DNA from: Balanoglossus misakiensis
Lineage: Eukaryota > Animalia > Hemichordata
DNA length: 64,000 nucleotides
Direction: 5' to 3'
NCBI GenBank assembly: GCA_040954595.2
Contig: CM082589.2
Span: 9,932,894-9,996,893 of the forward strand
In this document: piece after piece, positions 6,907 to 40,882 of the stretch
Layout: each line of letters starts with the position of its first letter
Numbering within the stretch: position 1 is the stretch's first letter
Translations under genes and position numbers: made by a program
Notes under the pieces: model-generated
Seen by the model: the letters and a program-made list of their open reading frames with translations, nothing else
The model's database searches: none
What the model was told of the DNA's origin: nothing

Positions 6907-7060
6907 TGTGATAGTATTGTCATGATCACGTGATTGTCACATGGTCTGTATACGTGATTTCCTGTAACTGTTAGTTCCCGCGTGGTTGTCATTCAATAAA
7001 CATCACTTCTGTGGAACTCCGTCGTTGTCGACTGTCAATAACCCCTCCCCGGACATCACA
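6907..7060 (+). repeat. 5' LTR of Gypsy element 1
   Basis: TGTGAT...ATCACA inverted termini, contains AATAAA, identical to 11754-11907. Confidence 0.97.
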
Positions 7061-7064
7061 TAAA

Positions 7065-7077
7065 TGGCGACGAGGAT
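7065..7077 (+). promoter_or_regulatory. Primer-binding site, tRNA-Ser(GCU)-type
   Basis: TGGCGACGAGGAT just after the LTR; complementary to the ...ATCCTCGTCG-CCA 3' end of metazoan tRNA-Ser(GCU). Confidence 0.8.
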
Positions 7078-7160
7078 TTAGTTGTCTAAATTAACTATCG
7101 AAGAACATACGCAAGCAACCTTTACGAGATTTGGTGACTTTTTAGCCGTGATTTGAGTGC

Positions 7161-10100: not shown

Positions 10101-11502
10101 CGAATTATGGTTGTATGGCAGATTGATCATGCGTGGTAACAGATTGGTTGTTCCTCAAGTTTTGCAAAGAAAAATCTTGAAAATTGCACACCAGGGTCAT
10201 CAGGGAATTGTGAGGACAAAGGCTCGTTTACGTGACAGAGTTTGGTGGCCAGGAATGGACAGGGATGTGGAAAAACTGATACGATCCTGTCATCCATGTC
10301 AATTGGTCAGTGCCAGGCCAAACCCAGAGCCATTATTACCCACACAGTTACCTGAAGGACCATGGTTCGATTTAGCAGTTGATCTTTTGGATGTATGTGA
10401 TGGTGAGAAATTACTAGTGGTAACTGATTTATACTCTAGATGGCCTGAAGTAGTTTTGTTAAAGAAAACAGATGCTGCCCATGTCATAAAAGCCATGGAA
10501 GCTATGTTTCTTACACATGGGTTGCCTTACTGTGTCAAATCAGACAATGGTCCACCTTTTACCTCAGCCGAGTTTGAAGGTTTCCTTGATTACTTAGGTA
10601 TTGATCATGAATATTCCATTCCATACTGGCCTCAGAGCAATGGAAGTGTTGAGAGGCTGAATGAAATAATTTTGAAGTCTGTACGAATTGCTAAATTGCA
10701 AAAGAAAAGTTGGTACAAAGATTTGACACATTTTCTATTTGAATATAGAAATACACCCCATACTGTGACAGGCATATCTCCTGCTATGGCTCTGATGGGA
10801 AGAGAGTTTAGGGACAAAATTCCTAGACTGAGAATTCCATCCCAAACAATCAATGAGTCTGATTGGCAAATCAAAATGAGAGAAAGAAACAACAGAATGA
10901 AAATGAAACAAAAGTTCTATGCCGACAACAGGAGACATGCCACTTCCTCAGATATCAGGGAAGGTGATACTGTTTTGCTCCAGCAAGCATTTAGGCAAAA
11001 CAAACTCACTCCCAATTTCGAGACAGAACCATACAAAGTCATCCAGAAAGATGGAGGTGCGTTATTATTGGAAAACTCCAAAGGTGTAAAAAGAAGGTCC
11101 ACTGGACATGTAAAGAAATATGTTGAGGAATATCCAGAATTTTCCTTCCAGGGCACTGAATGGAACTCCAAACATTTGACATATGAACAACCTCAAAGGG
11201 TTCAAAATGGTGTTCCATCCTGTAACCCCCATATCCATGATTTGTCTACACATAACAACCTGGATAACTTGCCAGTATAACCCGTCTGTTCTAGTCAGAA
11301 ATCAACTGGACCAGCATGTCCTAGTCCTGTTTCACCTACTGGTACAGCATCGTTGGAAACGATTGTAAATGTTCCTCCAACAATGCCAGTGACAAATTCA
11401 CCTAAGACAAATGTAAACCCCAATAGTACTGATGTGAGACGCTCAACAAGAATAAAATCTAAACCTCCTTGGCACAAAGACTATTGCATGCCAGAAGGAT
11501 AG
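7161..11502 (+). pseudogene. Gag-Pol polyprotein (2 CCHC knuckles, protease, RT, RNase H, integrase) with three lesions
   Basis: Knuckles CFRCGRKGHMQREC and CFRCQKPGHRAADC; protease IIDSGATCN; RT SWVNPLV..IRLCLDMR..MHDDI; RNase H TSDASPVG..EREAL..TDHKPL; integrase AHQGHQG..CHPC, VDLL..SDNGP..NGSVER; C-terminal RRSTRIKSKPPWHKDY. Lesions: +1 A at ~8698-8703, in-frame TGA at 9361, in-frame TAA at 11278. Confidence 0.95.
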
Positions 11503-11753
11503 ATTATATTGACATAAGACTGTCCACAAACATTATGGAATGAGTTTCTGTAGAGCAAATTTTCTCTTGGAGATTTGTATTTTCCTAGTTATGAAGTTCT
11601 CAAGTTCTTGTTAAGGTTAAGGTTCTGTTTGTTTTCGTTTGTTAGAACATGATCATTCACAAAGCATTACAATTTGACAGTGTTGGCAAATTTCATACTT
11701 TCCAAAGCGAGTTGTAAACTTAAAGTACAAGTTTTCTTCTAAAGTTGAGGAGA

Positions 11754-11907
11754 TGTGATAGTATTGTCATGATCACGTGATTGTCACATGGTCTGTATAC
11801 GTGATTTCCTGTAACTGTTAGTTCCCGCGTGGTTGTCATTCAATAAACATCACTTCTGTGGAACTCCGTCGTTGTCGACTGTCAATAACCCCTCCCCGGA
11901 CATCACA
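11754..11907 (+). repeat. 3' LTR of Gypsy element 1
   Basis: Identical to 6907-7060; preceded by AAAGTTGAGGAGA. Confidence 0.97.
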
Positions 11908-16928: not shown

Positions 16929-17461
16929 CACATGGGGATTAAATGCATATGCGTGTGTATTTAAAGTTAACTGTAAATCCCCAGGTTAATACGTGGCCAA
17001 AAGCACTGTAATTTGGCATTTCTAATGATGGTGAGATGTTGTTTGCTCCCCAGGGAGTTGAATGGAATATTTAGGTCCAACATCCTAGCTCAAATGACCA
17101 TGGGACAACTTAAAGCACGTTGAGATTTAATGTGCTACATAAGTTATAAATATTATAAAAATATTATTACATAAACAACACTCTTCCTTAGCAAAGGAAG
17201 TGGTCAGGTGAAATATATTCGCAGAGCTGACCAATTCTTTAAGGAAAATTAAAGTTGGGTAATTTGGATGTATTCATACGAGTGTTGGTCAATGATAGGA
17301 AAGTCCTTTGTTCATTTTCAAAATGAAAACCAAAAATGCGAACAAAACACACTGAATTACGTATGGGATATTGATGTTGCCTAATTTGCGTGACTCTACA
17401 TTTACTTAAACTCTCACAGGGAGACAAATGTCACAGCAAACGGAAAAATGATTATGCTAAG

Positions 17462-19428
17462 CAATACGCCAACCTTTAAAATATTACTTTAGAAAGTTTG
17501 TATTCATACTTTCTTCAAGTTGTCATAACGCTACCCCGAAATGTGTTTAAGTATTGCCTTTGTATTAATGGGCTAGATTCATGGCGTTATATGTCATAAA
17601 TTAAAAAGCCAACCCTTATTGATTTTGATAATATTTATGTCGGAGAATCCACAATGAAAAATATGTATTTCAATTTCATAACTCAAAATGATTTTCAAAT
17701 CCATGACCTTATTTTCAACTCCAGTGATCGTACATCCTGAACCTTGTGCCAGTAAATGATTGGCCATTACAGGGTTAATGGGCACTCTCCCGTTCTCTTC
17801 CTCCGCAGTTTCATTCATGTTCTTGTTTGACGGAAATGGGTGTGACCAGACGCTTGAATGTTTTCATGTGGGTGTCGTTGTTCATCGGGATCGGTCTCCT
17901 GGTGTGTCTGTACAGGTACGCAAGGAGAAACTGCCCACAAGAAGCTGCGAGTGAAACTATTTAAGGTAGTATGTGCCTCGCGGTCCGAGATTCAGACAAA
18001 TGATAGTCCTCAAAACTTTTTCAAGTCTTTGATTTACTAAAGTGTATGGTGAGTCTCTTTGAAAACAACAAAAACATTACTCACCATATTGTTATTTTTT
18101 TGAAAGTTTAAAATGAAGTTGACAATGTACCAAACAGATTCTATTTATTTCTTCATGACCATGTTCACCCCAAGGTCATATGGACCTGCAAGTATATGCC
18201 AGAGCCAGAGTCGACATTACCGAAGCCAGAGTTCAAAGCTTGCAGGTCACCCCTTGCCAGCTCATGTCTAGCTAAACTGCCATGGATGCCAAGAGATATA
18301 GGACTACAGTAACCTGTAGATGGTTTCAGTATGTTTGAAGAAAGTGGTGGCGCACTTTTGGCTACATTTGAAATGGCTATGGTACCAGTGGTTGAATTTG
18401 CAAAGGTGACCTTTGACCTGGTATCATTAAAGATATTAAAGAACGATTGAACATTCCTTGTTGTCGTAAAATGACATCTGTAATAACTTATATTTTATCT
18501 GTTCATCTTGAAGTACTATATATTTAAACGCCAATTTTCCATTGCCAATCAAGTTTTTACAAATAAATTGTAATATGCATGTTGATTTTACAAAAACTCC
18601 TTACTTCCAAGTGAATTCTGTTACACATCACGTAAATATTTTCCCCACGAATTCTTCAGTTGCTGACTCGGAAATTTCATATATTGGGCAGAAATTGGAT
18701 ACATTACCGAGCCATTAAAATTACAGTTTTCTATTTTAATTGATCTTCCATAACTTCAAGTACTTTGATTTGACATAAATTAAAAACATCATGGTGAATA
18801 AATAAAAAATCTTTGATTATCTAATTGTGCATGTTTACATGGTTTTATTTTAGTATGCTGGGTACTTAATGTCTAATTGCTCGCTGATTTTATACTGTTC
18901 AAGATGACAATCTAATTTTAGTTTTCAGCTGATAATGGAAATCACTGATTAAAAAAATTGAATTTTGTCATGAATAAACTTGTTGTTCATGGCAGTTGCT
19001 GTATTTTGTTTCATGTGTATTCAATTTTTGCAAGAATACCATTGAGCACAGTTTGATTTGATTAAACACGTTTATCGGAAAATTTTGTCATTTGAAATAT
19101 CTGTTTTTGCGCCCTCTACCATTTGACCAAATGATTCTCTTATTTTGGTGGCCTTTGTCTGTGTATATGAGAATACTATAGTACTCTCGCATCGATGATA
19201 GTAGAAGTTGAAAACGTCTCTTGCCACGTGGCCTAGAAGAAAGGTGATCTTTAGAGTAAAATAAAACAAACTATCCAGATAGGAAGCTAGAAAAGAAGTT
19301 GAATCGTTGAAATTTTATTTATTTTTATATTGTTAATATCGTTGGTGATGTTGACTGGCCGACAATCTTTGTCACACCAGTATTTGCAGGTAGATTAAAA
19401 CATTGCCTATTCCAGCAATAATCACAAC
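17462..19428. repeat. ~1.97-kb direct repeat, copy 1 (copy 2 at 34230-36197)
   Basis: Near-identical from CAATACGCCAACCTTT to CAGCAATAATCACAACAG. The ORF track shows paired ORFs (17594/34384 and 17858/34627). Confidence 0.95.
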
Positions 19429-19644
19429 AGTCTTACTTTTTCTATCTTTGTAAGCGTTAATCTTTATTGACCTCGCTTGTTGTTTTGTGTTTTTGTGTTG
19501 TTTTTGTTTTTGTTTTGTTTTTTTAGTAGTTTCATAATTTTATTTGTATTTTTAAAATGTTTTCCTGTTTTTTGTTTACTTTTTTATTTTTTTTACTATT
19601 TGTTGATTGTAATGCTGTATGGGTCTCGACTGTCGGTCCCAACT

Positions 19645-20941
19645 TGTCATATAATTAGGTAGTACTGGAGTCAGTGGAAACCCAGGTGCCCGCATAATTT
19701 CAGGTGTAGTGACACCGTGTATTGTCATGTTAATGAATAGGGCTTCGTTAGCTAAGTTTCGTGTAGTAAGAGAGCACACTTCAATTTAGGTCTTGAAGGG
19801 AGCAACAAGTCGGGTCTCCCTGCTCAGTGAGTAGAAATACTAGGGGAAATATTGCACCATACCTTGCTGTGTCCATGTAATGCTGTAGCGCGCATTAGTG
19901 CTCTCAGGACCACTGTTTCTGCAATTCGAGTGGAAGTAAATTCAGTACTTCTAGAAAGCAGAATTGTGCTTATTCAGTGCAAACCGGTGTGGTCGGGCGA
20001 TTGGCGTGGCTGGCATGGTCGTATGTGGTGTGGCTGGAAATTGCTCCAAGCAGAGTTCTGTGGAACCATCCTATAGACCCGGTATTGCTGAGCATGAAGT
20101 GTGGTGAAGAATTCTCGTGTAAGTAATGTATTTGTTTATTTATTTACTATAACTTAAATTTATATTTTATGGATATTTATGTCAAATTCGACAATTTGTA
20201 AGTAATAGGACGGTCATAGTTAAAGCATAATTTTCCATGATATCACATGTAATCATGACGCTTTAACTAGTCCAAATTTCTGATAATTATTATTGAGAAA
20301 CGTCAGTATTCATTTGTGAACAGTTGCTAAGGTGGACATTTCAGTCAATGTTTGTTGATTTTTCATTCAGCCATTTAACCCAAGACTTGCATCTAACAAG
20401 TCAGTCTTCAGTGTGTTTACTTGACTACTGGAGGACTACAAGTGGTAGAAAACATGGTGTATCACAGATTGTATGTGTAATGTGGATCGTCGCTACATCG
20501 TTCATCTATACAGGACTCCATCCCATATTGTGGTTGAATCATGATTGTTTACTATGAATGTTATATACAGCTAAGTGACACTTACCATTGTTTAGACAAT
20601 ATGCAATAGACAATAAACTATAGTGATATTGTGAATATATTCATTTATGTAATATATTAAGTAACCCATTGTATTGTATGACCAATTGTATCAGCATACC
20701 TGTACCTGCTAAATTGGTTAGGACAGAGACATTTGATATTGTGCATATTGTGCACAAAAATTATATTCCTAGTATTATCTTTATATTATTTAATTGATTT
20801 AAATTAAATCAACTGTATTATTGTATCCGCACTGGTTTGTGTAGTTTCTCCCCATACCTTATCCACGGATGTTTACTCCTTGGCACTGAGAGCTGCTCAA
20901 TATTTATCCTGGAATCAGAGGGGTGCCCTCCACCTCTGACA
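19645..20941 (+). repeat. 5' LTR (~1.3 kb) of the Gmr1-like element
   Basis: Starts TGTCA directly after the motif GGGTCTCGACTGTCGGTCCCAACT, which recurs at 36508-36531 without the LTR. Ends TGACA 2 bp before the PBS. There is no second LTR to confirm it. Confidence 0.7.
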
Positions 20942-20943
20942 TT

Positions 20944-20960
20944 TGGGGGCTCGTCCGGGA
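20944..20960 (+). promoter_or_regulatory. Primer-binding site, tRNA-Pro
   Basis: TGGGGGCTCGTCCGGGA, the canonical tRNA-Pro PBS sequence. Confidence 0.92.
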
Positions 20961-21241
20961 GTTTTATCGTTTTGTTGTGCATTTGTTTGTATACTATCAT
21001 AAATTGTTGCCATATAGTGGAGACCATGGTTTTGATAGGTAGAGATTCTGCAAATTGTGAAGACGGTGCTGGGTCTGTAGGCTGGTACTGTTACTGTATG
21101 TGCGCTTGTGGTTTCCTGCTATATAATATGGGCCGTGTTGGTTTGCGTCGTGCGTTTGGCTGTGTTGACTTGTGCTGAATGCCCTGTACTGCTAGTGGTT
21201 GTCAAACTGGGGGTTGTAAATCGCGATACAGCAAAGCATAT

Positions 21242-23052
21242 ATGCAGAAAGAATATCTAAGATAGGGAGAAAATTTGGGTTGGAAGGGACTGCTTTAAAA
21301 GATTATGTTAGAGAGGAACAAATTAGACAGAGGGATCTTAGGGCTACTGAGAGAGAGGAGCAGAGAGAAGATAATAGGCGGCGCGAGGAACATGAGAGAG
21401 AGATACTGAAAATGCAAATTCACTTACAAGAATTAAAATTGAAAGGGGAAAATACAGAACAGCAGGTTACTGAAAATAATTTGGCCAAAGCGCGTGCTCC
21501 GAGACTACAGGGTTTTCGTGAGGATGTTGATGATATGGATGCGTACCTTCAACGTTTTCAGCGCTACGCCACTGCTCAGAAGTGGGAAAAAGATGTCTGG
21601 GGGTGAATCTCAGTGCATATTGTTACAAGGTAAGGATGTATCCACATACAACCAAATGCCTGCAGCGTCTGCAAATAATTATGATGAATTGAAACCAGAG
21701 TTATTGAGGGCTTACCAGTTAAGTGAGGAGAGTTTTCATGACAAGTTCCGTTCGTGTATGCCACATTATGATGAAAGTGCTCAAAAGTTTATGGACCGTA
21801 TTGGTGACTATTTGGGCAGATGGGTAGAACTGGCTGGTACTCCAAAGACGTACAATGGGCTTACAGATCTGTTACTTCGAGAGCAGTTTATTGGAGTATG
21901 TTCCAGAGACATGGCAATGTTCATTAGAGAGCGACGGCCAGAGAATGTCCAAGAGATGGTATCTACTGCCTCAAAATACTTAGATGCCCGAGGGTGGTGG
22001 AAACTGCCAAGTAATGCCAAGAATAATCCAAGGAGCCAGCCGACAGCAAATACCAAGCCTTCTGTATATCCAAATCAAGTAAATAAGTTTAATAACAAAA
22101 CCAATGGTTCCCATGTTTTTAAAGGTACGTGCTTCGTATGTGGTAAAGGTGGTCATATGGCCAAAGATTGTAGAAGTAAGCCAAAGATGCATAAGACGGC
22201 GGTATTGTTAACTGAAGAAGATAGAAACTATCCACCTAAACAAGAATGTACACATTGGGGCAACCGTCAACAGCCCAGGGGACTAGACACTGGTTATGCA
22301 TGTATGGTGGTAGCAATGGAAATAGATAAAACAGATGCAACACTGAATAAGGAGTTCGTGTTACCATGTGGTCATAAGCTCCCAGTGATGAGTGCTGCTT
22401 GTAGTGCCCATGGAGTGAAGAAGATGCCGGTAATGAAGGGATTGCTCGATGGTAAGCTGGTTAGCGTTTTGCGTGATAGTGGGTGTAGTAGCGTGGTAGT
22501 TCGAAGAAGTCTGGTGTCAAGTAATCAGCTGACTGGTGAGTACAGGACGTGTGTTCTGATAGATGGGACTATTAGAAGAGTACCTGTAGCCTCTATAAAA
22601 GTTGATACCCCTTACTTTGTTGGTGATGTTACTGCACTGTGCATGATGAACCATGTGTATGATTTAATACTGGGCAACATTGATGGTGTATCTGACCCTT
22701 CGAATCCTGATACTACATGGCAGGAACCATTGCCGACATGTAGACTGTGTACAACTGTTGGACAGGTACCAGGTTTAGCAAATGCTGTGGAGACCAGAGC
22801 CCAGAAGATAGCCAACCAAAAACCAATCAGAGAGCTTAAAGTACCTAAAGCTGTTGGTGAAGTGGTGATGCCAGGGAAGCTTCAACAAGCTCAAGAAGAA
22901 GACTCCACTCTTGACAAACTACGTGAGAAGGCAATTTTGGGTGACGAGAAAGTGACTAGGAATGGAGGTAGGTTGAAGTTCATCATGAAAGATGGGATCC
23001 TGTACAGAGAGTTCAATTCGCCAATGGTCCAATTTGGTGAAAAGCTGTTACA
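21242..23052 (+). pseudogene. Gmr1-like Gag (SCAN-like capsid CTD, CCHC knuckle), protease and start of the integrase region
   Basis: DMDAYLQRFQRYA; LLLREQFIGVCSRDMAMFIRERRPENVQEM (SCAN-like); CFVCGKGGHMAKDC; LRDSGCSSVVV; QQAQEEDSTL..DGILYR. Stop/frameshift lesions occur near 21262 and ~21600-21620. Confidence 0.88.
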
Positions 23053-23092
23053 CACTGCGGGAAATACTAGAGCTATGTTGGGCAGTATTCCG
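23053..23092 (+). repeat. Left bipartite TIR
   Basis: CACTGCGG-N18-TGGGCAGTATTCCG. Confidence 0.85.
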
Positions 23093-23136
23093 CGAAGCGC
23101 GAGCTCCCATGTTCACCATAGCAACGCATTGCCAAG

Positions 23137-23787
23137 ATGGCGGCGCCCGTGTTGATCGATGCCGAGAAAGTTATAAAACGCAAATTGCGAGAGGCAAAAT
23201 CTGTGCTTAAACGTAAAAAATGCGTGTCGGACAATCTGTATATACACCCACTCTTTGATGAACTTGAGGATGTGACAACAAGGGCCATATTTCGAAACGA
23301 CAAGCTGTCAAAGGACAAGATTCGTTGGCGTGACGTCGCCGTATTTCCCATGTTTCAGCGTGATATGACCTACTGGCAGAAGACCTTCTACGCTCGGCTG
23401 TCAACATCCCCGTCGTTAAGGTCACCATGGCAAAGCAGCTTTACACGACAAATGCCGAGGGAAGTATTTGATGTTTTTCATCAGTTTGCTACTCGGACCG
23501 GTTTTGGTATCGACGAGAAGACCTCCAGGGCTATCATAACCTTGACCTTCACAAGTTCCTTGAAGCTATTGTATGTGATACGGAAAGGTTATTGCTACGA
23601 GGGCGCTATCGGTCAGCATACAGAGAATATCCTAGAGAAGAAAGTCCGTGGAAAGAGGGTAGCTGTTATATTCACACCTGAGAAGCCCTGTGTTGTGAAA
23701 TATTTTATCAACAGGGAGACTGTTGCTGTTAGATTCAGCTTTGGTGCCTGGAACAAACATGGAATTCCATTACATCCAGAGAACTGA
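23137..23787 (+). CDS. Intact 216-aa basic orphan protein carried by the transposon (unknown function)
   Basis: Uninterrupted ORF starting 84 bp inside the left end, strong start context (AAGATGGCG), AATAAA at ~23916, convergent with the transposase. No domain recognised. Confidence 0.75.
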   Translation: MAAPVLIDAEKVIKRKLREAKSVLKRKKCVSDNLYIHPLFDELEDVTTRAIFRNDKLSKDKIRWRDVAVFPMFQRDMTYWQKTFYARLSTSPSLRSPWQSSFTRQMPREVFDVFHQFATRTGFGIDEKTSRAIITLTFTSSLKLLYVIRKGYCYEGAIGQHTENILEKKVRGKRVAVIFTPEKPCVVKYFINRETVAVRFSFGAWNKHGIPLHPEN

Positions 23788-24639
23788 ACCCTATTGATTT
23801 TTCACACTGATTCAACCCATCTGAGGAACATTTTTTTCCTGATCTGTGGCACATGTTGTTCAGTGTAGATGTATCAGTCTGTCAAGACAGTCCTCTCACA
23901 ATTGACATATATTCAAATAAAAAAAGGAAAATTAGAAGACTCAAAAATTCATCACTTGTCTTTATTTATCTACATTCAATACAAATGAACAGATAATGTT
24001 TACAAAATTTCCTAAACTGTAAAATTCTTTTTTTCCATCATTATTGTAACATAGATTTTTCATTAGTTTCAGAAAAAAATGTATGTTACCTACAATCAAC
24101 ATTGATAAGTCAATCAAAACTGCTCATCTAACAGTTAACCAGGATTTCTGGTCTAAATTTAATTAATATTTACAATTAATTCCATGACAAAATTTATAAA
24201 TATCAAGAATTTGATGAGACTTAATTCTTTATTTTTTCACAAATTCATTAAAATTTCGTGCAGGTGCAGAATAAACAACTCCTCAAGAAAAATGTAAAAC
24301 TTTTCTATCAAGCTTATGTATGTCATACATTTTAATTTTGCAAAGCACTGCAATCACTATACGATTAAGGGTTTATTCACAATACTTAATAGTGGTAAGA
24401 TAAGTTTCAATTTCCCTGTCCCCATACATGCACACATATACAAAATCCCATAAGAAACATATCATCTCCAGTTCAAAAAGTGTGAATTCATGTGATTTGT
24501 GATCTCCATTTTTATTAAATGCAGCTCTCAACTACAGATGAGTCTTTATAATTCTGTAATGTAATTAATACTATAGTTATCCTTTAATTCTAAAGTAGCA
24601 CACAGTGACACAATCCACTGTTTCAAATTCAATCATTGT

Positions 24640-27600
24640 TCACAGCATAAGTTTCTTGAGTTTATTTGATATTTTACCAGTGACAGCTGCTTTTTTTATG
24701 TCATCCATAATTGGGTCAACACATATTTCACAGGCAGTCATTGTTTCATTTTTTTAAATTGCCACACATACAGTAGCCTGCATTCTCATAATATCGACTG
24801 GGAATGTATTTTTCTTTTTCTTTAAGCTCAAATTGACCTACATTTGCATTTCTATAGTTGTCAGCTTTTGGACTTTTGTTCCTCAGCCAAAAAAGCATCA
24901 CATATTCGTGTCGAAATATGAGGGCCCACCTATTTTGAGGTGTAGAATTTTCACTGAATTCTAGCAGGCGTAGATGCTTTGCCTCTCTGCCTTCCATTGT
25001 GTTTAGGCCTAATCCCAGACTGAATTGCTTATAGATACTAGTGGTGTGTTTTGGGACTACATAACCAATGTGCCACACAGTATTATTGACATTCAGAAAC
25101 AGGGAATGTAGATTAAAGTACCACCGACACTTATGCCTAAGTACAAGCAAATCTCCCTCATTTATGTTGAATCGTGAGAATAACAAAGTGATATCTCTAA
25201 GCAAGATACCAGTATATGTGTAGAGAGCTAATTGAGCCCGACGCTTTGGTCTGTCTGTATCGCTTCTCAATGCTAATACCAATCCTATGAAATGCCAAGC
25301 AAGTTTGCGAGACTCCTCACCAGTGAAGCGATAAACCACATTAATGTTGGCATTTGACTTGACACTATTTTCATTGAAGTATTTTACAATCTTATTATAC
25401 AACTTTCCAGCTTTTACTTGATATTTTAGGGCAGACAGGAATTTGTACAGATATGACTCGTTAGGTAGATTCTCAATTTTAACTCCATTTTCACGACCCT
25501 TTTCCGAAGTGTGGGCAACTGCGTCAATCAGTAATCGTTGGAAGTAGTATTGCCATGCATTGTTCTTTAAATGCAATGGCTCAGCCTTGGCACAATCAAT
25601 AAATCTACCCAACGGTGGTACAAATTCCTGTCTTGACCTCAGACTGGCTATAAATTGTGTGATTTTGGGTCGCACTGTTTTGGGCTTTCCAGTTTTAATT
25701 TTCTTAGTTGACTTCAACTTTTCAACAGCTTCTGCATCTTTAATTCTTTTCTGATATTTCCATTCATCCCACTTCTGACCTGGGCCAATTTCTGCTCCAA
25801 TACAATCAATATCATTTTTGGAACGTTAGCAAATGAGCTGAAATACTTTGCTGCATTGCTTAGTTCTCCAGACACACTGGCCAATCCCTTCTGATCAAAG
25901 GGTAAAAGTGACACCTGAAAAGTTACATCAAGACTGCCAACTTTATATTTACGTTTCTCAATACACTCAAGGTCTTTTGACAATGCAATTGCAAATTCAA
26001 TCATTATGGGGTCATCCTCTTTTATGTTTGCCCCTAATAGGAGAAAATTGTGGTCTGGGCTAGCAACACGGTGGGTCACATTCAAGAAACTAACTAGCCA
26101 TGCAGTGGCCTGTCCATGTTTGCCAAACGGAGCCCCGTCAGCACCTATACTGATTTGAAATGAGCCCTCCTGTTTACCGAACCAGTTAAGAATATCAGGC
26201 TGTGTTTCCCCCATATTTAAATATAAACTGGCAATCTTAATAAGCAACTCCTCAGGGTTTCTTTTTAAGCCGACTTGTTTGCCTTCAGATGATATAATTG
26301 GCTCAAGATTTCCAATGTCAAGGTTACTTACATACTGTACAACTTTTGTGTATGGGAGCAGTCTTGGTATTCTACAGCCAGAATGAATTTCTAATGCTTT
26401 CCTAGGATGTTTCAAGTTGGAGAACATCTGAAGTTCACTCTGCCTCAGACAGTTATATTTTCGTTTGGATAGCACTCCGCCCTCATACATAGTTCTGACA
26501 CTCCTCACCAAATTGTTCTCACTTTTCTCAAATTTACTGATGTATTTATCAAATACTGATGGCATTACTTTTTTACTGATTTGGGGAGAGGTTCTGAAGA
26601 ATGTTTTCATTTGGTCAGGAGTGGCAGAATTAACAAGAGTATACCACAAACCATCAAGTGCTGCTTTTGGTGGATGTAGTACATTCGGTTTATTTATACC
26701 TTTGGCTGGGCTTACATCTGTAGTTGCTACATGAATATTTATGGCTGCTGATAAGGTTTCACACCTACGTTCATACTGTTGACGTCGCGACAGCTTCAAA
26801 GATTCACTATTATCTGCACATACTTCAGTGTTCTTGTGGACCCATTTAGAGCGTTTCACATTAACAACATCAACAGGAATCTGAAAGATTAAGTGTGTGA
26901 TAAATATATACTAATTAGAATATAATCATTATATATAAAATAAAATCTTCTTACAAGTTAATCATTAATTTAAATGTCCTTGATAAGAAATACACACGTG
27001 TAGCCTGTATTTTTCTGACAACTTCTGCAATAAAAATCCTAAAAAATATACATAGTTTGTTGGAAAACCTAGATGTTTTGCATCAAAGCTGAACCCATTT
27101 TGTTATCATTGTTTACACAGGATCATGTGACATGAAGTTCAAAAAGCGAATTTGGGCTAAAATTTGAAGAGGATTTATACAAATCTGAGATTTTTAAAAT
27201 TATGACTAAGTCTATTTATCTGATCTAGCTTACCTTTCTCTTATTATTCTTTGTAGCTAAGATCTCACAAATCTTACTGTTCTTCTTCTCTAGTCTAGCT
27301 AGCTGGGTTGAGGATTTTTTACTAGTCTCCTAGCTGCACTCAACTTATTCAACTTATCCTGAATTATGCTTTCTTCCTCATCTCTCTTTCTCTTTCTCTG
27401 TCTACACCACTCTCCTAAGTTAAACCTGTGTTTAGTCTGTCCTCTCTTTGTTCTAACTACCAATAGGTTGTTGGCCACGCTCCCAGACAAAGATCTAGTC
27501 TTCAATTTCTCCTGATATAGTTGTTGTAAACACTTCTCTTCAGCTACCTGTCTCGCTATCTTTTGGTCCTTTGCCCACTGGCCTATGTTGAAGTAACTTT

Positions 27601-27676
27601 TCCCTTTTCTATTCGGCATAACAATAGACAAACTTTTAAGAAGTGCGCTACTCCTGTTGAATAGTTTGCCCCACAT
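24640..27676 (-). pseudogene. RAG1-core/Transib-like DDE transposase, ~890 aa when repaired; two coding exons, three 1-nt frameshifts
   Basis: Exons ~27676-27234 and 26880-24640 with a phase-0 GT-AG intron. Motifs: SIGADGAPF (D at 26137-9), LPFDQKGLASVSGELS (D at 25894-6), AEPLH, RFTGEESR, NTVWHIGYVVPKH, GLNTMEGREAKH (E at 24983-5), C-terminal CMCG..CEIC. Frameshifts at ~27315 (A-run), ~25822 and ~24750 (A-run). The start codon is uncertain (27676 or 27619). Confidence 0.8.
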
Positions 27677-28484
27677 GGCTCTAAATCTATACCTGAAAAG
27701 GGTGAACAAGAGAAATATCTTTACAATAATTATCTATCCGAGGGAAGCAAAAACAAAACACCTGCTCATTATACTTCCTCCAGAAATTGAGGTCAAAGGT
27801 GACATAGAAAGAATGTGGGTAACCTTACCATAACAATCTCGCCCATTCATTTTTTTCTTATTTCGTTTTCACCCTCGAATTTCCAGCGAATTATATCAAG
27901 AATATATTTTAGCACAAACTATTGGTTTCTGATTTTTCAGTTACGGTCTTATTTTCTGTCAATTCTATGAACAATATCACCATGTCGCCGAAAATTCGAA
28001 GCGCCGCCATTACAATCAATGTAACCCGTGCTGCTGCCAAGGAACACACAGGGTCGTATATTTTCGCTTGGTATGATTTCGTCATATTGCTTGTAGCAGC
28101 ATTTTAAACATGGAATCCTATGTTTACGTATAAAAGACTAAATTCGTATGGTTTTCAAATTGAAAAAAACAATTCTGTGAAGCTGAATCGTTGTAATTTT
28201 TAGTGTTTGTTTATGGTTGCTTAGGACGGCTTCTGCTATAGCAACGGCCAGGGACTGTCAGCGGGTGATCAAAATGTTCAAGTTATTTGGCTGATACACA
28301 TAAATAACACAGCAGAATCGCAACTTTATTTCATATTGTCTCTGACATCTTGCTAATTTTACTAAACAAAACTTGGAATAAAGCAATATTACTCACCGAA
28401 TTATGCTGTGCATCGACAGCTGTGTTCGATCGCGAACGCCATTACTGTGTCTAATTAAATATTCATGAGCTTCATAGGCTGCCA

Positions 28485-28525
28485 CGGAAATACTGCCCAT
28501 AGGTGGCGTCGTTCAAGCTGTAGTG
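28485..28525 (-). repeat. Right bipartite TIR
   Basis: Reverse complement reads CACTACAG-N18-TGGGCAGTATTTCCG. Confidence 0.85.
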
Positions 28526-28528
28526 ACA

Positions 28529-30535
28529 GGTGGTGGTTCCCAGAGTGTATCGTAACCAGGTGATGAGACTAGCCCATGAATCAGTGCTGGGTGGTCACCA
28601 CGGAACTCACAAGACCACAGACAAGATCCTCAGCAACTTCGTTTGGCCTGGGCTAACATCAGATGTTTCCCGTTACTGTCAGTCCTGTGATTCATGTCAA
28701 CGGACACAACCAAAGGGACGGGTGACCAAGGTACCACTTGGAAGTATGCCACTAATAGATATCCCTTTCCTACGTATTGCAGTAGACCTGGTTGGCCCTA
28801 TTCATCCATGCACTGAACGCAAGAATAGGTACATACTTACTGTTGTTGATTATGCAACACGCTATCCGGAGGCTGTTGCATTGACTAACATTGATACCAA
28901 GACTGTTGCAGAGGCGCTCCTGGACATCTACTCAAGAGTGGGGTGTCCACGTGAAATTCTGACAGATCAAGGAACTCAATTTACATCAGATGTGATGCGT
29001 GAGGTCAGCCGGCTTTTGTCTATAAAGCAGATGACTACCACCCCATACCACCCAGCATTCAATGGTCTAGTGGAACGGTTCAATGGTACATTGAAACTCA
29101 TGCTCAGGAAGATGTGTGAGGAACGTCCAACATATTGGGATCGTTATCTGAATGCTTTACTATTTGCCTACAGAGAAACGCCTCAATCGAGCACAGGATT
29201 CTCTCCGTTTGAGTTACTTTATGGGAGGAGTGTGCGTGGTCCAATGGCTATCTTGAAAGAACTATGGACTGGAGAGATCAGTGAACCAGAAACCAAAACG
29301 ACTTATCAATACATCCTTGATCTTCAAAAGAAATTAAAGAAGGCATGCGATTTAGCAAGACAAGAACTGAAGATATCACAAGGCAAATACAAGTCCTACT
29401 ACAATAGAAAGGCCAAATGGAGGAAGTTCAACAAAGGTGACGAGGTGTTATTGCTACTACCTACTGACCATAATAAACTACTTATGCACTGGAAGGGTCC
29501 TTTTCCAGTGGTGGAGAAAGCGAGCAATATGGATTACAAGATTGACTTTGGTCATAGGGTGAAAACATTCCATGCCAACCTGTTGAAGAGGTACTATCGA
29601 AGAACTGATCAGCTAGATGAAGTATCAGCTGGACTTCTTGAGATTGTGTGTGTATCTGTGATAGATGAGCAGAGTTATGAATCTTCAGAAGTACAAGAGA
29701 ACACAGGGGTTAAAGTAAACGATGACTTACTGCGGGTTCCTGCATTCAAGCAGAAAGAATTTGCTGCAGATGTGAATGTATGTGACAACTTGTCAGACAT
29801 ACAGAAGCAAGTGGTGAGGAGGTTGCTGATCAATTACAAAGATATGTTAACTGATATTCGTGGTAACACCAACCTGGGTTTCCATGACATCAAGTTGATG
29901 GATCCAACACCAGTATGCAGTAGGCCATACCCCATCCCTCATGCACTCCGTGAAGCAGTGAAAGATGAAGTCAAAACGATGATTAAGATGGGAGTAGCTG
30001 AACCTTCAGAGAGTCCATATGCTGTTCCACTGGTAATGGTGAAGAAATCTGATGGGTCCAATCGTTGTTGTGTTGACATGAGAAAGCTCAATCGCATAAC
30101 AGTGTTTGATGCAGAGCCTACACCAGACCTGAGTGAGCTTTTTGCTTTTTGCTAAGTTATCCAAGGATCACTATTTCACTAAAGTAGATCTCAGCAAAGA
30201 ATATTGGCAAGTCCCGTTGACTGATAATTCTAAACAATTGACGGCATTTATCACGCATGATGGGCTATACCAATTTATCAAAATGCCTTTCGGACTTGTA
30301 AATAGTGCTGCGACTTTTAGCAGAATTATGAGAAGATTGTTAAGAGATATGAAGAACGTAGACAACTATATCGATCACATACTGATCCACACTGCATCAT
30401 GGGAAGAACATATCAAGACAATTACAGATTTGATGAGCAGACTACGAAAGGCAAAGTTAACAGCGAGACCAACTAAGTGTTATGTGGGTTATGAGCAGAT
30501 CGATTTCCTGGGTCATGTGGTTGGTCATGGTGAAC
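28529..30535 (+). pseudogene. Gmr1-like integrase followed by reverse transcriptase (frameshifted, YIDH, truncated)
   Basis: Integrase: AHESVLGGHHG..CDSC, AVDLVGP..TDQGTQF..NGLVERFN, WKGPF. RT: SRPYPIP..SPYAVPLVMVKK..VDMRKLN, frameshift at ~30150, MPFGL, YIDHILI, FLGHVV. Confidence 0.92.
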
Positions 30536-30685
30536 TAGTCCTGTTTCAAAATGACCTACATTACAGGTCCTATGCACACGTATTACATGTTCTGATTGGT
30601 TTATCCACTTCTCTAAGGTCCACTTGCGGCTCGCTGATTGGAGGGACCTTATGTGTTAGGTCTTATTACTATGTATTATTCACCA

Positions 30686-30892
30686 GACCTTGTAGGTTAG
30701 GTCTTATTACAATGCATTATTCACTTTACAGCTCCCTGATTGGTTAATGTGTAGGTCTGGTCCTCCAGTGTTCACTGCCTCATTATGCAGGACCTTGTAG
30801 GTTAGGTCTTATTAATATGTATTTATTCACCATACAGCTCCCTGATTGGTTAACGTGTCAGTCTGGTCCCCCCAGTGTTCACTGCCTCATTG
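30686..30892. repeat. Tandem duplication of a ~104-bp unit
   Basis: GACCTTGTAGGTTAGGTCTTATTA...CAGCTCCCTGATTGGTTAA...CCAGTGTTCACTGCCTCATT occurs twice. Confidence 0.85.
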
Positions 30893-32402
30893 TGAAATGT
30901 CCCATGTGCTTCCTGGCTAGCGTTGTGGTAACATATTATTCGGGGTGTCCGCAGATCGTTCATTGATTTTCTGAGAAATAGCCTAACTGATACTATCTCC
31001 AACATAAACCGCACCCTGGAAAGATTAAATGATCTTTTAGGTGGACTTTGAAAATCTGATTAACTCATCTAAGCATTTTAGCTAAGTTGTATATTTTTTA
31101 ATTATAATCATACAAAATACTTAAAAAATAAAAACAATGTTCAGTTTTAATACCCACTGATGAGGGGAAACATCAGTTTCAAATTCTTTTCATGGGAGCG
31201 CTTGAGCAGAGTTATGAGTTTTGCTCTGTGAAAGAAAATGGGGGGATTTCAAAATATTTCGGGTTGTGAAAGGGGGGGGGGGCATGTGAAAATTAGCGGT
31301 AAAAGATGAATTCCCCCCCCCCCCTCCAGAGGTGTTTGTGAATGCAGCCTAAGAAAGAAAAAATGTGAAATGGGTCAAATATGGGCCGGACGTGCCCATT
31401 CAACTCAATTTACTTTTGTTTGCTTTAAGTAGGAATTGATCACAGCTATATTTATTTTGGACACCTGAGCGACAAGAAAACAATCTGATTCTACATTTTA
31501 AAAAGCGTCATTGGAAAAGCACTGCAATTTTGTTTCTTGCTTTAAAAAAGTTTGGGGTGGCATGTAATAATTAAGGTGTGTCTAAATTACTAATTTGGTG
31601 CACCTCAAAGCCCTTAGCCAATGTAAATTATATCCTGCATTGTATTCATGAAGGATATCCTCCCGCGAGGTCAATGCCATTCAATGTCAAACAGTCTCAA
31701 CAAAGACCATTGGACACTCATAGCCGTTTTGTATGAAAGTGACTGGAGTACGAGATGAGTTTCATGACAACAACAAATCATGCTCAGTCTCGCTGCAGGG
31801 TCTATAATTTCAATAACGGCTAGACGCTGGACACTATCTTAGGTAACACTTTAGGGTCATAGTGCTGGAACGACATGTTTAAACAGGTCGTTCCGGCACT
31901 CTGACCCTTTCGGCCCCAGTCGTTTCAGCCCCCATTTTCCACGACCCAAGTCGTTACAGCCCGGACAGTAACACCCCAAACATTTCAACACTTATCAGGG
32001 AAGACCTTAGCCCAACTATTAAAACTTGGCTTGAACCTACTTAAGTTCTCCGCATGAAATATGAGCGAGCGTTGTCAGAGGACGACAGCTACGCACACTT
32101 TGGGCATGACCGAATCAAACAGAATTGAATATTCTATATTCGGAAAAAACACCTTATCTCCGTTTTGCCGTTGACAAACCGATTTCTGTCATGACAGTTA
32201 CTCCCGGGGACTGTGACAGACCATATACAGACAGTAGAGGCCGCGCGCTGGGGGTCTACACAAGTCACTACAGCTGATGTAAGCAAGTACAACATGCTTT
32301 GCTTGCAGGAATGTTCCATTTTCAATAGAGGGGTGTGTATATTCAGAGGGAATGTCAGTCGGGGCCCTGGCTGGCAACATGCGGCGTATATATTGACAAT
32401 CT

Positions 32403-33330
32403 TAGCCGGGAGACCAGGGCGTCGATCTAAAATACAACGCTCGGGGACAGTCGAGCAAGTCCTGCTGAGCTGAAAGATAGTAGTCTTGGCAACGATCGAG
32501 GTCGCTTAGTAACAAATGGATAACGAGTGATCTATCAAATGTTGACGGGCGCCAGTGGTTGGATGATATAATTAAAGGCACGTAAGCTGTAACTGGATAA
32601 AAAATTAAAGTTTTAAATAATCTCATATATGCTTTTAATTATGTCTATTAAATGCTATTTCATGATAATATATCAAGCTCAACACTTATTTATGACAAAA
32701 TGGCCAAAAATTAAAGAAAAACGAAAATTCCTGCAATTTTAAAAAAAGCGCAATATTGCAATGAAAAATGAAAATCTGATGTCTCAGTGGTGTACATTTA
32801 CTTCCATGAGCTCAAGTGGATGAGATCATGTTTTGTTTATGAAGTTTCACAACCGGAAATGCAACATTTTCATTGTTTCTTGCATTTTCCCACGGTGGCG
32901 GCCATAATCGCTTGCGGCAAAGCTTTATTATTTATCTGGTTAAAACTTGCATATGCACTCATACTTAGGGTTTATAATGCTTGTGTATTGTTCACTACCT
33001 CCATCTGCATGGACTAATGGTAGTGCAGTTTGAAACAAAAATTATGAAAATTATCCCAAAAGTTACACCTTACGTGCCTTTAACAAAGCTTGGTTATGAA
33101 TATTCATACACTTTCAAAACCACTCCCACATCCCATCGCGGGAATTTCACACATGACTCCACCTCTATTTCCTTATTTAGAAGGCGACGATGTCATGTGG
33201 TTAACATTGAGTGACCAATTAGCTTACACGCAAGATTTACCACACGTGTCGTTCTACGAACAGAATTCTGTTCGTAAATAGAGACTGTCCCCGGGCGTTT
33301 CTTTTCCCCGACGCCCTGGTCTCCAGGCTA
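32403..33330. mobile_element. Non-autonomous TIR element, TAG...CTA termini, 9-bp TSD (AcademH-like)
   Basis: TSD TGACAATCT at 32394-32402 and 33331-33339. TIRs of ~50 bp: TAGCC(G/T)GGAGACCAGGGCGTCG...GGGGACAGTC. Confidence 0.85.
32576..33079. mobile_element. Kolobok-type non-autonomous element (504 bp) nested in the AcademH-like element
   Basis: TTAA TSD at 32572-32575 and 33080-33083; short TIRs AGGCACGTAAG(C/G)TGTAACT. Confidence 0.88.
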
Positions 33331-33763
33331 TGACAATCTCGCTGATAGGCGCAGCTGGAATTTATGTTTCTGTGGTATGATTATTGTATTTTATCAATGC
33401 ACAATCACGATGGGCGAGTTTCAAGCAAGCAATTGGATTCGCTTCAATCCCTCACTAAAATCTAGACTGCACCACTGTATAATAACACAATACAGTCTTC
33501 TAGCCTCATGGTATAAACAGGAACTCTTGTCTGCTGGACATCCGTGTACTTTGGTCTACTGAGTGAACGCGTTACGTATAGAGGTAGCGCAAAGTGAAAA
33601 CCTATTTAAGGCAGCCACAACAATCAGTGTTGACGTACATACAATCTGACTAAAATCGCAGTTGGTATGACGACAGCATACTAATAATACTGTACCACAT
33701 AAGTAAAAGACGTCGTCGTACCATACATCTGATTTTATTCAGATTACTGCATATTTGCATATA

Positions 33764-33970
33764 CTGTGAAACAAGTTATTTTCGCGAGCAATACATTTTC
33801 GCGAGATACGTGAGAGCCAAAATGGTATGAAAATAAGAGGTCGCATAATTATTTTTGAAGATAACGATGCAGTGAATGAAATAAGAGAACGCGAAAATTA
33901 ATACTCGCGAAACAGTAGCCTCTCTCGATATCGTGAAAATTTCAACTCGCTAAAATAAAGTGTTTTACAG
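33764..33970. mobile_element. MITE with TA TSD (Tc1/mariner-like)
   Basis: TA|CTGTGAAACAAGTTATTTTCGCG ... CGCTAAAATAAAGTGTTTTACAG|TA; internal CGCGA(A) repeats. Confidence 0.75.
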
Positions 33971-33996
33971 TAGTTTATGTATGTAAAGTGTTCCTG

Positions 33997-34126
33997 ATGT
34001 TAACACAATCTGTTTGAAATCAGATGTAGGCCTAGGGAATGGCGACGTAGTTTTTTGATGCTGCGACAGCATAAAAAACACGTCGCCGTTCCCTACATCT
34101 GATTTTAATCAGATTAGCGTTAACAT
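33997..34126. repeat. ~130-bp imperfect palindrome (related hairpin at ~33642-33746)
   Basis: ATGTTAAC..AATCTG...AAATCAGATGTAGG..GAATGGCGACGT / ACGTCGCCGTTCCCTACATCTGATTTTAATCAGATT..GTTAACAT. Confidence 0.75.
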
Positions 34127-34229
34127 AACTTTATCAGAATAAGTTAACGCCATAACTTTGACAGAATAAGAGTTGCCTCAAACGGCTCTAACCGAATTTC
34201 CATTAATAGCAGAACAAACAAGCTGTAAT

Positions 34230-36197
34230 CAATACGCCAACCTTTAAAATATTACTTTAGAAAGTTTGTATTCATACTTTCTTCAAGTTGTCATAACGCT
34301 AACCCGAAATGTGTTTTAGTATTGCCTTTGTATTAATGGGCTAGATTCATGGCGTTATATGTCATAAATTAAAAAGACAACCCTTATTGTTTTTGATAAT
34401 ATTTATGTCGGAGAATCCACAATGAAAAATATGTATTTTCAATTTCATAACTCAAAATAATTTTCAAATCCATGACCTTATTTTCAACTCCAGTGATCGT
34501 ACATCCTGAACCTTGTTCCAGTAAATGATTGGTCATTACAGGGTTAATGGGCACTCTCCCGTTCTCTTCCTCCGCAGTTTCATTCATGTTCTTGTTTGAC
34601 GGAAATGGGTGTGACCAGACGATTGAATGTTTTCATGTGGGTTGAGTTGTTCATCGGGAACGGCCTCCTGGTGTGTCTGTACAGGTACGCAAGGAGAAAC
34701 TGCCCACAAGAAGCTGCGAGTGAAACTATTTAAGGTAGTATGTGCCTCGCGGTCCGAGATTCTGACAAATGATAGTCCTCAAAACTTTTTCAAGTCATTG
34801 ATTTACTAAAGTGTGTGGTGAGTCTCTTTGAAAACAACAACAATATTACTCATCATATTGTAATTTTTTGAAACTATAAAATGAAGTTGACAATGCACCA
34901 AACAGATTCTATTTATTTCTTCATGACCATGTTCACCCCAAGGTCATATGGACCTGCAAGTATATGCCAGAGCCAGAGTCGACATTACCGAAGCCAGAGT
35001 TTAAAGCTTACAGGTCACCCCTTGCCAGCTCATGACTAGCTAAACTGCCATGGATGCCAAGAGATATATGACTACGGTAACCTGTAGATGGTTTCAGTAT
35101 GTTTGAAGAAAGTGGTGGCGCACTTTTGGCTACATTTGAAATGGCTATGGTACCAGTGGTTGAATTTGCAAAGGTGACCTTTGACCTGGCATCTTTAAAG
35201 ATATTAAAGAACGATTTACCATTCCTTGTTGTCGTAAAATGACATCTGTAATAACTTATATTTTATCTGTTCATCTTGAAGTACTATATATTTAAACGCC
35301 AATTTTCCATTGCCAATCAAGTTTTTACAAATAAATTGTAATATGCATGTTGATTTTACAAAAACTCCTTACTTCCAAGTGAATTCTGTTACACATCACG
35401 TAACTATTTTCCCCACGAATTCTTCAGTTGCTAACTCGGAAATTTCATATATTGGGCAGAAATTGGATACATTACCCAGCCATTAAAATTACAGTTTTCT
35501 ATTTTAATTGATCGTCCATAACTTCAAGTACTTTGACTTGACATACATTAAAAACATCATGGTGAATAAATAAAAATTATTTGATTATCTAATTGTGCAT
35601 GTTTACATGGTTTTATTTTAGTATGCTGGGTACTTAATGTCTAATGGCTCGCTGATTTTATACTGTTCAAGATGACAATCTAATTTTAGTTTTCAGCTGA
35701 TAATTGAAATCAATGATTCAAAAAAATTGAATTTTGACATGAATAAACTTCTTGTTCATGGCAGTTGCTGTGTTTTGTTTCATTTGTATTCAATTTTTGC
35801 AAGCATACCATTGAGCACAGTTTGATTTGATTAAACACGTTTATCGGAAAATTTTGTCATTTGAAATATCTGTTTTTGCGCCCTCTACCATTTGACCAAA
35901 TGATTCTCTTATTTTGGTGGCCTTTGTCTGTGTATATGAGAATACTATAGTACTCTCGCATCGATCATAGTAGAAGTTGATAACGTCTCTTGCCACGTGG
36001 CCTGGAAGAAAGGCGATCTTTAGAGTAAAAAAAACAAACTATCCAGATAGGAAGCTAGAAAAGAAGTTGAATCGTTGAAATTTTATTTATTTTATATTGT
36101 TAATATCGTTGGTGATGTTGACTGGCCGACAATCTTTGTCACACGAGTCTTTGCAGGCAGATTAAAACATTGCCTATTCCAGCAATAATCACAACAG
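34230..36197. repeat. ~1.97-kb direct repeat, copy 2
   Basis: Near-identical to 17462-19428. Confidence 0.95.
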
Positions 36198-40100: not shown

Positions 40101-40882
40101 TTTTTTGATGATTTTCACCATGATTTTTTTCAAAAATCGACGAAATTTTGAGATTTCGCAAAGTTGAAAATTTGACATTTGTTGATGATTTTCATGAGCT
40201 ATAGCCCATGATTTTTTTTTCAAAATCGACGAACCCATGTTTTTTTTTCAAAAATCGACGATATTTTGAGATTTCGCAAAGTTGAAAATTTGACATTTGT
40301 TGATGATTTTCATGAGCTATAGCCCATGATTTTTTATTTCAAAAATCGACGAAATTTTGAGATTTGCAAAGTCGAACATTGGTCATTTTGATGATTTTCA
40401 CCCATTTTTTTTTTCAAAAATCGACGAACCCATAATTTTTTTTCAAAATCGACGAAATTTTGAGATTTTGCAAAGTCGAAAATTTGTCATTTTTTGATGA
40501 TTTTCATCCATGTTTTTTTTCACAATTCAACGAACCCATGATTGTTTTCAAAATCGACGAAATTTTGAGATTTTGCAAGAACCCATGATTTTTTTCAAAT
40601 TCGACGAAATTTTGAGATTTTGCAAAGTCGAAAATTTGTCATTTTTTGATGATTTTCACCCATGATTTTTTGCAAAAATCGACGAACCCATGATTTTTTT
40701 CCAAAATCGACGAAATTTTGAGATTTTGCAAAGTCGAAAATTTGTCATTTTTTGATGATTTTCATCCATGTTTTTTTTTTCAAAATTCAACGAACCCATG
40801 ATTTTTTTCAAAATCGACGAAATTTTGAGATTTTGCAAGAACCCATGATTTTTTTCAAAATCGACGAAATATTGAGATTTTG
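37182..40882 (-). repeat. AT-rich satellite array, reverse-orientation block
   Basis: Reverse complement of the 78-bp monomer (ATTTTCACCCATG..AAAATCGACGAAATTTTGAGATTTTGCAAAGTCGAAAATTTGTCA), frequently interleaved with the ~29-bp subunit. Confidence 0.97.

Follow-up and report, generated by a model that had tools for sequence, protein, structure and literature searches.

A two-gene DNA transposon with bipartite CAC ends and a predicted RAG1-fold transposase in the hemichordate Balanoglossus misakiensis

A DNA transposon of 5,473 bp is inserted at positions 23053-28525 of the window, by which we mean the whole 64,000-nucleotide stretch of Balanoglossus misakiensis DNA that was analysed. It carries two genes that face each other tail-to-tail: a transposase gene on the minus strand, and on the plus strand a second gene whose open frame of 216 codons starts 85 bases from the left tip. 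The element is flanked by a 3-bp target-site duplication, and it landed in the pol region of an LTR retrotransposon of the Gypsy type, with gag and protease frames upstream of the insertion and an integrase frame downstream. The features are listed in Table 1.

Table 1. Features of the element and of its insertion site (window positions).
Feature	Position	Strand	Evidence
Left copy of the target-site duplication, ACA	23050..23052		Flank inspection
Terminal motif CACTGCGG, second-gene end	23053..23060	+	End comparison and same-sample relative
18-bp spacer, with an unconserved 9-bp inverted partial box copy (23060-23068)	23061..23078	+	4/18 identical to other end
Internal box TGGGCAGTATT, positions 27-37	23079..23089	+	End comparison
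Second gene ORF2 (P0003), 216 aa, open frame, convergent with transposase	23137..23787	+	Conserved in related elements; model not RAG2-like
Main transposase exon, frameshifts near 25820 and 24752	24640..26880	-	5′ limit at a predicted splice acceptor (by eye)
Likely upstream transposase exon, limits approximate	27302..27692	-	Short match to N-terminus of homolog P0053
Internal box TGGGCAGTATT, positions 27-37 from right end	28489..28499	-	End comparison
18-bp right-end spacer	28500..28517	-	End comparison
Terminal motif CACTACAG, transposase-5′ end	28518..28525	-	End comparison
Right copy of the target-site duplication, ACA	28526..28528		Flank inspection
Host Gypsy-type LTR retrotransposon, limits approximate	17458..36197	+	Direct repeats ~17458-19430 and ~34226-36197, 93-98% alike

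In the host LTR element (21443-30747), an integrase frame lies ahead of reverse-transcriptase-like sequence, an order that we take to be the one known for Gmr1-like Gypsy elements, and the gag frame has a SCAN domain match. Both junctions between transposon and Gypsy element were found inside unbroken contigs of run X1 covering window positions 22000-29500, at a word depth of ~1,600-1,700. Contigs of diverged relatives had a depth of 114-262 only, depth not being copy number. Transposon and Gypsy host may have been multiplied together, as a single unit. A second insertion site of the exact window family was not seen among the contigs of one sample, which is no proof of absence. Elsewhere in the window lie another Gypsy-type element, compact and bounded by identical direct repeats of 154 bp, whose gag is PNMA-like (6907-11907), and a long satellite (37200-64000) that is AT-rich, is built of 78/79-bp units divided into 28-bp sub-units, and switches orientation near 40,850-40,950.

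The two ends of the window copy have the same layout. From each tip inward, the terminal motif is followed by 18 nt and then by the same 11-base box, which starts at position 27 left and right (the right end being read on the reverse strand). The consensus of the two tips is CACTRCRG, and the spacers are identical at 4 of 18 positions, which is the chance level. The first-pass annotation had described this arrangement, with spacers of equal length and different sequence, and both the coordinates and the spacer identity confirm it for the window copy. That the spacer mismatch is the decay of a contiguous terminal inverted repeat (TIR) was rejected for the window family, where a 4/18 spacer stands beside an 11/11 box. 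The box 11-mer occurs twice in the whole window, at the two ends only. This count alone is unremarkable, because 11 of 100 shuffles had two or more box matches at 1 mismatch; the probability of an in-register run of 11 bases within the first 60 nt, counted from the tip, is ~1e-5. Within 300 nt, each window end holds one box copy, plus one partial inverted copy. The latter, at the left end, had been proposed as an inverted copy of the box that makes the ends asymmetric. A 9-base match does exist: GGAAATACT, at left-end positions 8-16, is perfectly complementary, in inverted orientation, to 9 bases of the box at the right end. Compared with itself, however, the left end has a longest inverted match of 6 nt, no better than shuffles (6 nt is reached by 219 of 5000 shuffles and by 2 of 25 other ends). 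The inverted copy is found neither in the right end nor in the printed terminus of a relative from the same sample, and the asymmetry is not conserved.

Two frameshifts break the transposase gene of the window copy. One contig of run X2 has an extra base at the first of them (window 25821), so copies or reads differ at this position. Upstream of the main exon, 12 residues encoded at 27592-27557 align with the N-terminal end of homolog P0053 (E 0.019). The C-terminal part of the transposase matches 76 proteins among 3,152 candidates of 630-2000 residues. The best homolog is an uncharacterized Ptychodera flava protein (75%), and the other named ones, from corals, an anemone, a nemertean and an annelid, are at 34-40%. 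The same sample holds at least two other diverged relatives of the transposase, on contigs of 5,099 and 2,097 bases, with matches at 25366-25451, 25830-25926 and 26627-26670. We aligned 65 of the 76 homologs, leaving out 11 near-duplicates, together with two pieces from the window. No relevant Pfam family was found in any aligned member, and Transposase_21 was found in 0 of 67 at E≤0.01. The transposase gave no significant Pfam or PDB sequence match, and no RAG1 match by Pfam or PDB profile search.

The DDE triad is near-invariant in the alignment, with D181 in 65/65, D262 in 64/65 and E566 in 65/65 sequences. Of the motifs known around such a triad, the C(2)C (CxxC) motif after the second Asp is absent from all 75 homologs inspected for it, which have Y-F-S-x-F in its place. 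An H(3-4)H motif precedes the catalytic Glu in 34 of 76 homologs and is absent from the window copy; its second His is conserved in 63/65 sequences and its first in 24/65. A four-cysteine motif, CxC-x10-CxxC, is conserved at the C-terminus. No N-terminal CxxC was seen in the 60 of 76 homologs that were parsed, some of whose models may miss first exons.

The fold was examined on a model of the P. flava homolog (pLDDT 91), whose best match is RAG1 (Foldseek E 5e-12; Z 22.9, rmsd 4.0, 469 residues aligned, 10% identity). BbRAG1L and HzTransib both follow at Z 20.0 and the P element at 12.3, in a comparison whose rows include no CACTA or Chapaev structure. In the Atlas comparison, TM scores were about level for RAG1 (0.63), a Transposase_21 cluster (0.62) and Plavaka (0.59), and on this ground the predicted transposase fold belongs to a broad clade rather than next to RAG. 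Some structural alignments run from model residue 1 onward into RAG1 residues 400-421, at rmsd 6-8; the predicted N-terminal region thus fits the RAG1 nonamer-binding domain loosely.

Related elements were collected in a metagenome scan, in which 204 of 254 candidate stretches were confirmed and the best 80 of these taken as loci; the 80 are redundant, many being the same family from several samples. Plain pairing of CAC sites gave noise, and termini were taken from multi-copy boundaries together with a motif search. They read CACGC(C/T)GGG, with close variants. After exclusion of duplicate copies and of the L073 right end, 24 non-redundant relative ends were counted along with the two window ends. 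Nine relative pairs, two of them from sibling loci, were compared left against right. Identity is 80/81 at positions 1-9, a figure that is partly circular since the termini were partly chosen by their CAC motif; it then falls to 45/54 at 10-15, 31/63 at 16-22, 21/36 at 23-26 and 1/18 at 27-28, rises to 39/45 at 29-33, and falls again to 15/36 at 34-37 and 56/207 at 38-60. The second peak, at 29-33, has a column-permutation P of 0.002. With 10 pairs, the in-register score was 87, against 52 and 55 at one-base shifts. For 15 of 26 ends, the best site of a leave-family-out matrix fell at the expected one of 38 offsets; for the other 11 it fell at a different one.

The inner motif of the relatives is G/C-rich and lies at positions 27-37, and its offset is the same across families whose transposases are only 35-45% identical. 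It is fixed relative to the tip, whereas the ATG of the second gene lies 78-107 bp from the tip (11 ends). The box sequence itself is family-specific, as the exact window box gave chance-like matches only in the 80 loci. From the same sample as the window, a contig ~80% alike aligns from 23078 inward, and a loose end CACTACGG lies exactly 25 bases earlier; its spacer is identical to the two window spacers at 6/17 and 3/17 positions (counted by eye). By the position of its tip, this relative is in register with the window ends, and together with the second identity peak it upholds the earlier proposal of bipartite ends at a fixed distance. The check suggested there, whether spacer length is conserved while spacer sequence varies, gave a mixed outcome in relatives: the offset is shared, but the spacer is partly conserved and two loci depart in length. 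In L002 the motif is 1 nt closer to the tip at one end, and in L073 the spacer is 8 nt shorter than in its sibling L071, yet the duplication is matched. L017 has a near-contiguous TIR (88%, ~34-35 bp) and L004 is at 88% over 33 bp.

Matched 3-bp duplications (GAT, ATT, AGC and TAG) flank 4 of the 11 relative loci with both ends (P 5e-5), and 4-bp or 5-bp duplications flank none of the 11. Several loci without a duplication have one flank in common and the other different, as in collapsed assemblies. In L002, L004 and L073 both ends are present with a matched duplication, and the main transposase frame and the second gene are open, which makes functional tests feasible. An additional inner copy of the right terminus was seen in L050, at 3240. 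Four families carry inverted second-gene fragments of 80-180 bp upstream of the transposase, near the other end (L012, L017-L019, L068, L050-L054 and L071-L073, by self-comparison of L012, L017, L050 and L073 and by profile matches). Such fragments could come from template switches during repair, or could be a source of transcript hairpins.

The second gene accompanies the transposase across the lineage. In the window copy its start codon lies within AAGATGGCGGC (23131-23147), a YY1-like site, and similar ATGGCGG stretches occur near several relative ends. The window protein alone found homologs in 32 of the 80 loci; a profile, built partly from the same loci, placed it downstream of the transposase, on the strand opposite to it, in 33 of 80. 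Among the 35 loci with at least 1.5 kb downstream, 30 have the gene, the five without it being L013, L026, L032, L035 and L056. Its distances track those of the transposase (Mantel rho 0.56, p 0.0008, 11 elements), and the trees of the two genes share one starred five-element clade and do not resolve the deeper branches. At the level of sequence comparison, the distance correlation and common clade show co-inheritance, i.e. linkage, and not function.

A search of representatives at 50% identity found 736 relatives of the second protein (E≤1e-3). Precomputed annotation places the newer Pfam family PF26709 on 38 of 41 homologs. The protein itself had no significant Pfam or PDB sequence match; among the Pfam matches there was neither kelch nor PHD, and those for 18 and 90 aligned members included no Argonaute or PAZ family. 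In its model (pLDDT 83), three long helices come first and a mixed sheet with two helices follows. That the gene is a RAG2 was ruled out, the model being helices plus an alpha/beta domain and not a propeller. Foldseek gave no match at E≤0.001, and the best structural alignment (Z 7.6) covers a helical hairpin only, in a comparison that hardly extended to the C-terminal domain; the lack of a clear fold match does not show a new fold. Language-model features point to ArgoN/ArgoL1/PAZ clusters at 0.93 (recognition 1361, weak), and five listed Foldseek rows are SPARTA (short Argonaute/TIR-APAZ) chains, at E 0.09-0.16 and TM 0.15-0.18. An Argonaute-N/APAZ-like fold of the second protein is thus weakly suggested by the model.

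We compared the element with the known systems that share parts of this organisation. Transib ends, in the available excerpts of Kapitonov and Jurka 2005 (PMC1131882), are 38 bp long and consist of a heptamer, a variable 23-bp spacer and a nonamer, and in most families the left and the right end are both RSS23-like; most are called symmetric in PMC8289069 as well. Equal spacers, which the first-pass annotation set against 12/23 and 27/31 pairs, are therefore not new. The element resembles Transib in its CAC termini, in its RAG1-like DDE core, and in bipartite ends that span ~37-38 bp and hold a variable spacer, of the same length left and right in most families. It differs in its 3-bp duplication, against 5 bp in canonical Transib, and in having CAC only and a G/C-rich box at 27-37, against a CACAATG-like heptamer and an A-rich nonamer; the bipartite layout is shared, and the RSS-likeness first proposed goes no further than CAC. 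It also lacks the CxxC zinc motif, is at ~13% identity, and carries two genes, against the single protein of canonical Transib (excerpt of PMC4411706). Some dipteran Transibs do make 3-bp duplications, but start with G (excerpt of bioRxiv 2026.08.26.747230).

RAGL elements have convergent RAG1L and RAG2L genes and 5-bp duplications (PMC9435367; excerpts of PMC7204232 and PMC10629977). With RAGL/ProtoRAG and RAG1/RAG2 the element shares its best structural match, RAG1, and two convergent genes inside CAC-ended bipartite ends; its C-terminal cysteine cluster lies where RAG1L has CTT*, as CxC-x10-CxxC instead of Cx2Cx3GHx4C. Its second protein, of ~210 aa with a predicted helical and alpha/beta fold, contrasts with the kelch propeller with PHD of RAG2L, its equal spacers and 3-bp duplication with asymmetric spacers and 5 bp, and its 8-13% identity to the RAG1 core in structural alignments with the ~30% expected. 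Chapaev3 elements, in the excerpts available, have CAC ends, often CACT, 3-bp TWA duplications (PMC3014272) and an N-terminal Chapa zinc finger (PMC4411706). The element shares the CAC termini and the 3-bp duplication; it has no Chapa zinc finger, its duplications (ACA, GAT, ATT, AGC, TAG) are not TWA, and it is larger, with two genes, the separation from Chapaev3 being by description only.

EnSpm/CACTA elements are similar in their CACTA/CACTG tips, 3-bp duplication and two genes, and in the TM score of the Transposase_21 cluster. A typical CACTA element was rejected, since there is no Transposase_21 and there are no subterminal repeat arrays; C(2)C is also missing, and the genes are convergent. 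For the CMCT clade as a whole, the available part of Kojima 2025 (PMC12730594) lists the C(2)C motif. Of the features of that clade, the element has a DDE triad in a RAG1-like core, and CA..TG termini with a duplication of 2-5 bp. Fungal ESTA elements, described in the same excerpt, are RAG1-like by HHpred, make a TA duplication, measure ~7-12 kb and keep C(2)C and H(3-4)H. Their termini are mostly CACCRCGGG, with one CACGCCGGG, in the first 400 bases of the entries in the supplement, and are the nearest in sequence to the CACTRCRGG and CACGCYGGG of this lineage. Compared by these partial descriptions, ESTA differs in being fungal, in its TA rather than 3-bp duplication, and in its C(2)C motif, absent here.

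The element would work like a Transib or RAGL element, yet lacks defining features of each named family. No published account of the lineage was found in the literature, with supplements partly visible and the Repbase/Dfam consensus sequences outside the comparison. The visible portions of the supplements of PMC9435367 and PMC7204232 held no family motif, a weak blank as long sequence runs are cut there. Because Repbase was not covered, PF26709 covers the second protein, and supplements were only partly visible, the lineage may be catalogued under another name. A lineage with a predicted RAG1-fold transposase, a 3-bp duplication and a non-RAG2 partner gene nevertheless looks new.

In RAG and Transib biochemistry, a transposase dimer with a second contact site cuts at the CAC tip. 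From the ends, the duplication, the fixed box position, the conserved DDE residues and the second-gene linkage that we observe, and from the predicted folds of the two proteins, we favour, with a probability of about 0.6, a cut-and-paste transposon whose RAG1-fold transposase would read the tip together with a box ~3 helical turns further in, aided by the product of the second gene. Analogy with RAG and Transib suggests that the catalytic core of a transposase dimer would cut at the CAC tips, probably by nick and hairpin, and strand transfer with a 3-bp stagger would produce the 3-bp duplication. The N-terminal helical region, at the place of the RAG1 nonamer-binding domain, would hold the box ~30 bp in, and for this reason spacer length would matter more than spacer sequence: we infer from the same analogy that the transposase measures the spacer. 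The second protein would most likely be a transposition cofactor or regulator, playing the part of RAG2 without kinship to it.

The same ends might be ordinary imperfect TIRs of ~37 bp whose middle drifts because the transposase would contact the tip and a distal patch only, their equal length reflecting the origin of both from one repeat without a strict length rule. The gradient among relatives, from near-contiguous (L017, L004) to split, and the exceptions of 1 nt (L002) and 8 nt (L073) agree with this explanation, which we hold to be unlikely though a serious contender: a spacer at chance identity beside an intact box is not uniform drift, and the motif offset stays constant between families with well-diverged transposases. 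The inner box could also be a host-factor site or a promoter element for the two inward-pointing genes, both ends preceding inward-reading genes. Among the 24 relative ends, 9 have GCCA at positions 30-33 and 3 have GCCAT (by eye), sequences that resemble the YY1 core. Binding of a YY1-like factor to ProtoRAG TIRs, reported in an excerpt of PMC7481187, counts for such a host-factor box. Its position, however, is fixed to the tip and not to the ATG, the window box is not YY1-like, and box sequence varies by family, and we regard this explanation as very improbable.

The second gene, for its part, might be a protective passenger, for example countering small-RNA silencing through an Argonaute-N-like fold. 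The weak ArgoN/ArgoL1/PAZ signal, the SPARTA chains and the inverted second-gene fragments of four families all lean towards this role. As the fold matches reach TM 0.15-0.18 only, and neither a Pfam Argonaute/PAZ family nor a significant PDB sequence match was found for the protein, we think it rather unlikely.

Since Transib already has such ends, the bipartite end alone is of modest interest, and the two-gene lineage is the more interesting feature. More tentatively than the cut-and-paste mechanism itself, and at somewhat less than even odds, we propose an unnamed, widespread marine-invertebrate lineage of predicted RAG1-fold transposons that would have lost the core zinc site, switched to 3-bp duplications, and recruited, independently of RAG2, a small partner encoded tail-to-tail with the transposase. 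A transpososome reading spacer length at both ends would need this partner as a subunit. The lineage bears on two questions, the passage from a one-gene Transib-like enzyme to the two-gene RAG recombinase and the origin of spacer-measuring ends. For these it offers a natural control: predicted fold, convergent gene order and fixed-distance ends are the same, but the partner is unrelated, the core zinc motif is missing and the stagger differs. With it one can ask if the bipartite ends go back to the ancestor of the whole clade, and if a partner gene was gained more than once. If the proposal is true, the two-gene RAG architecture would have been invented twice, in parallel.
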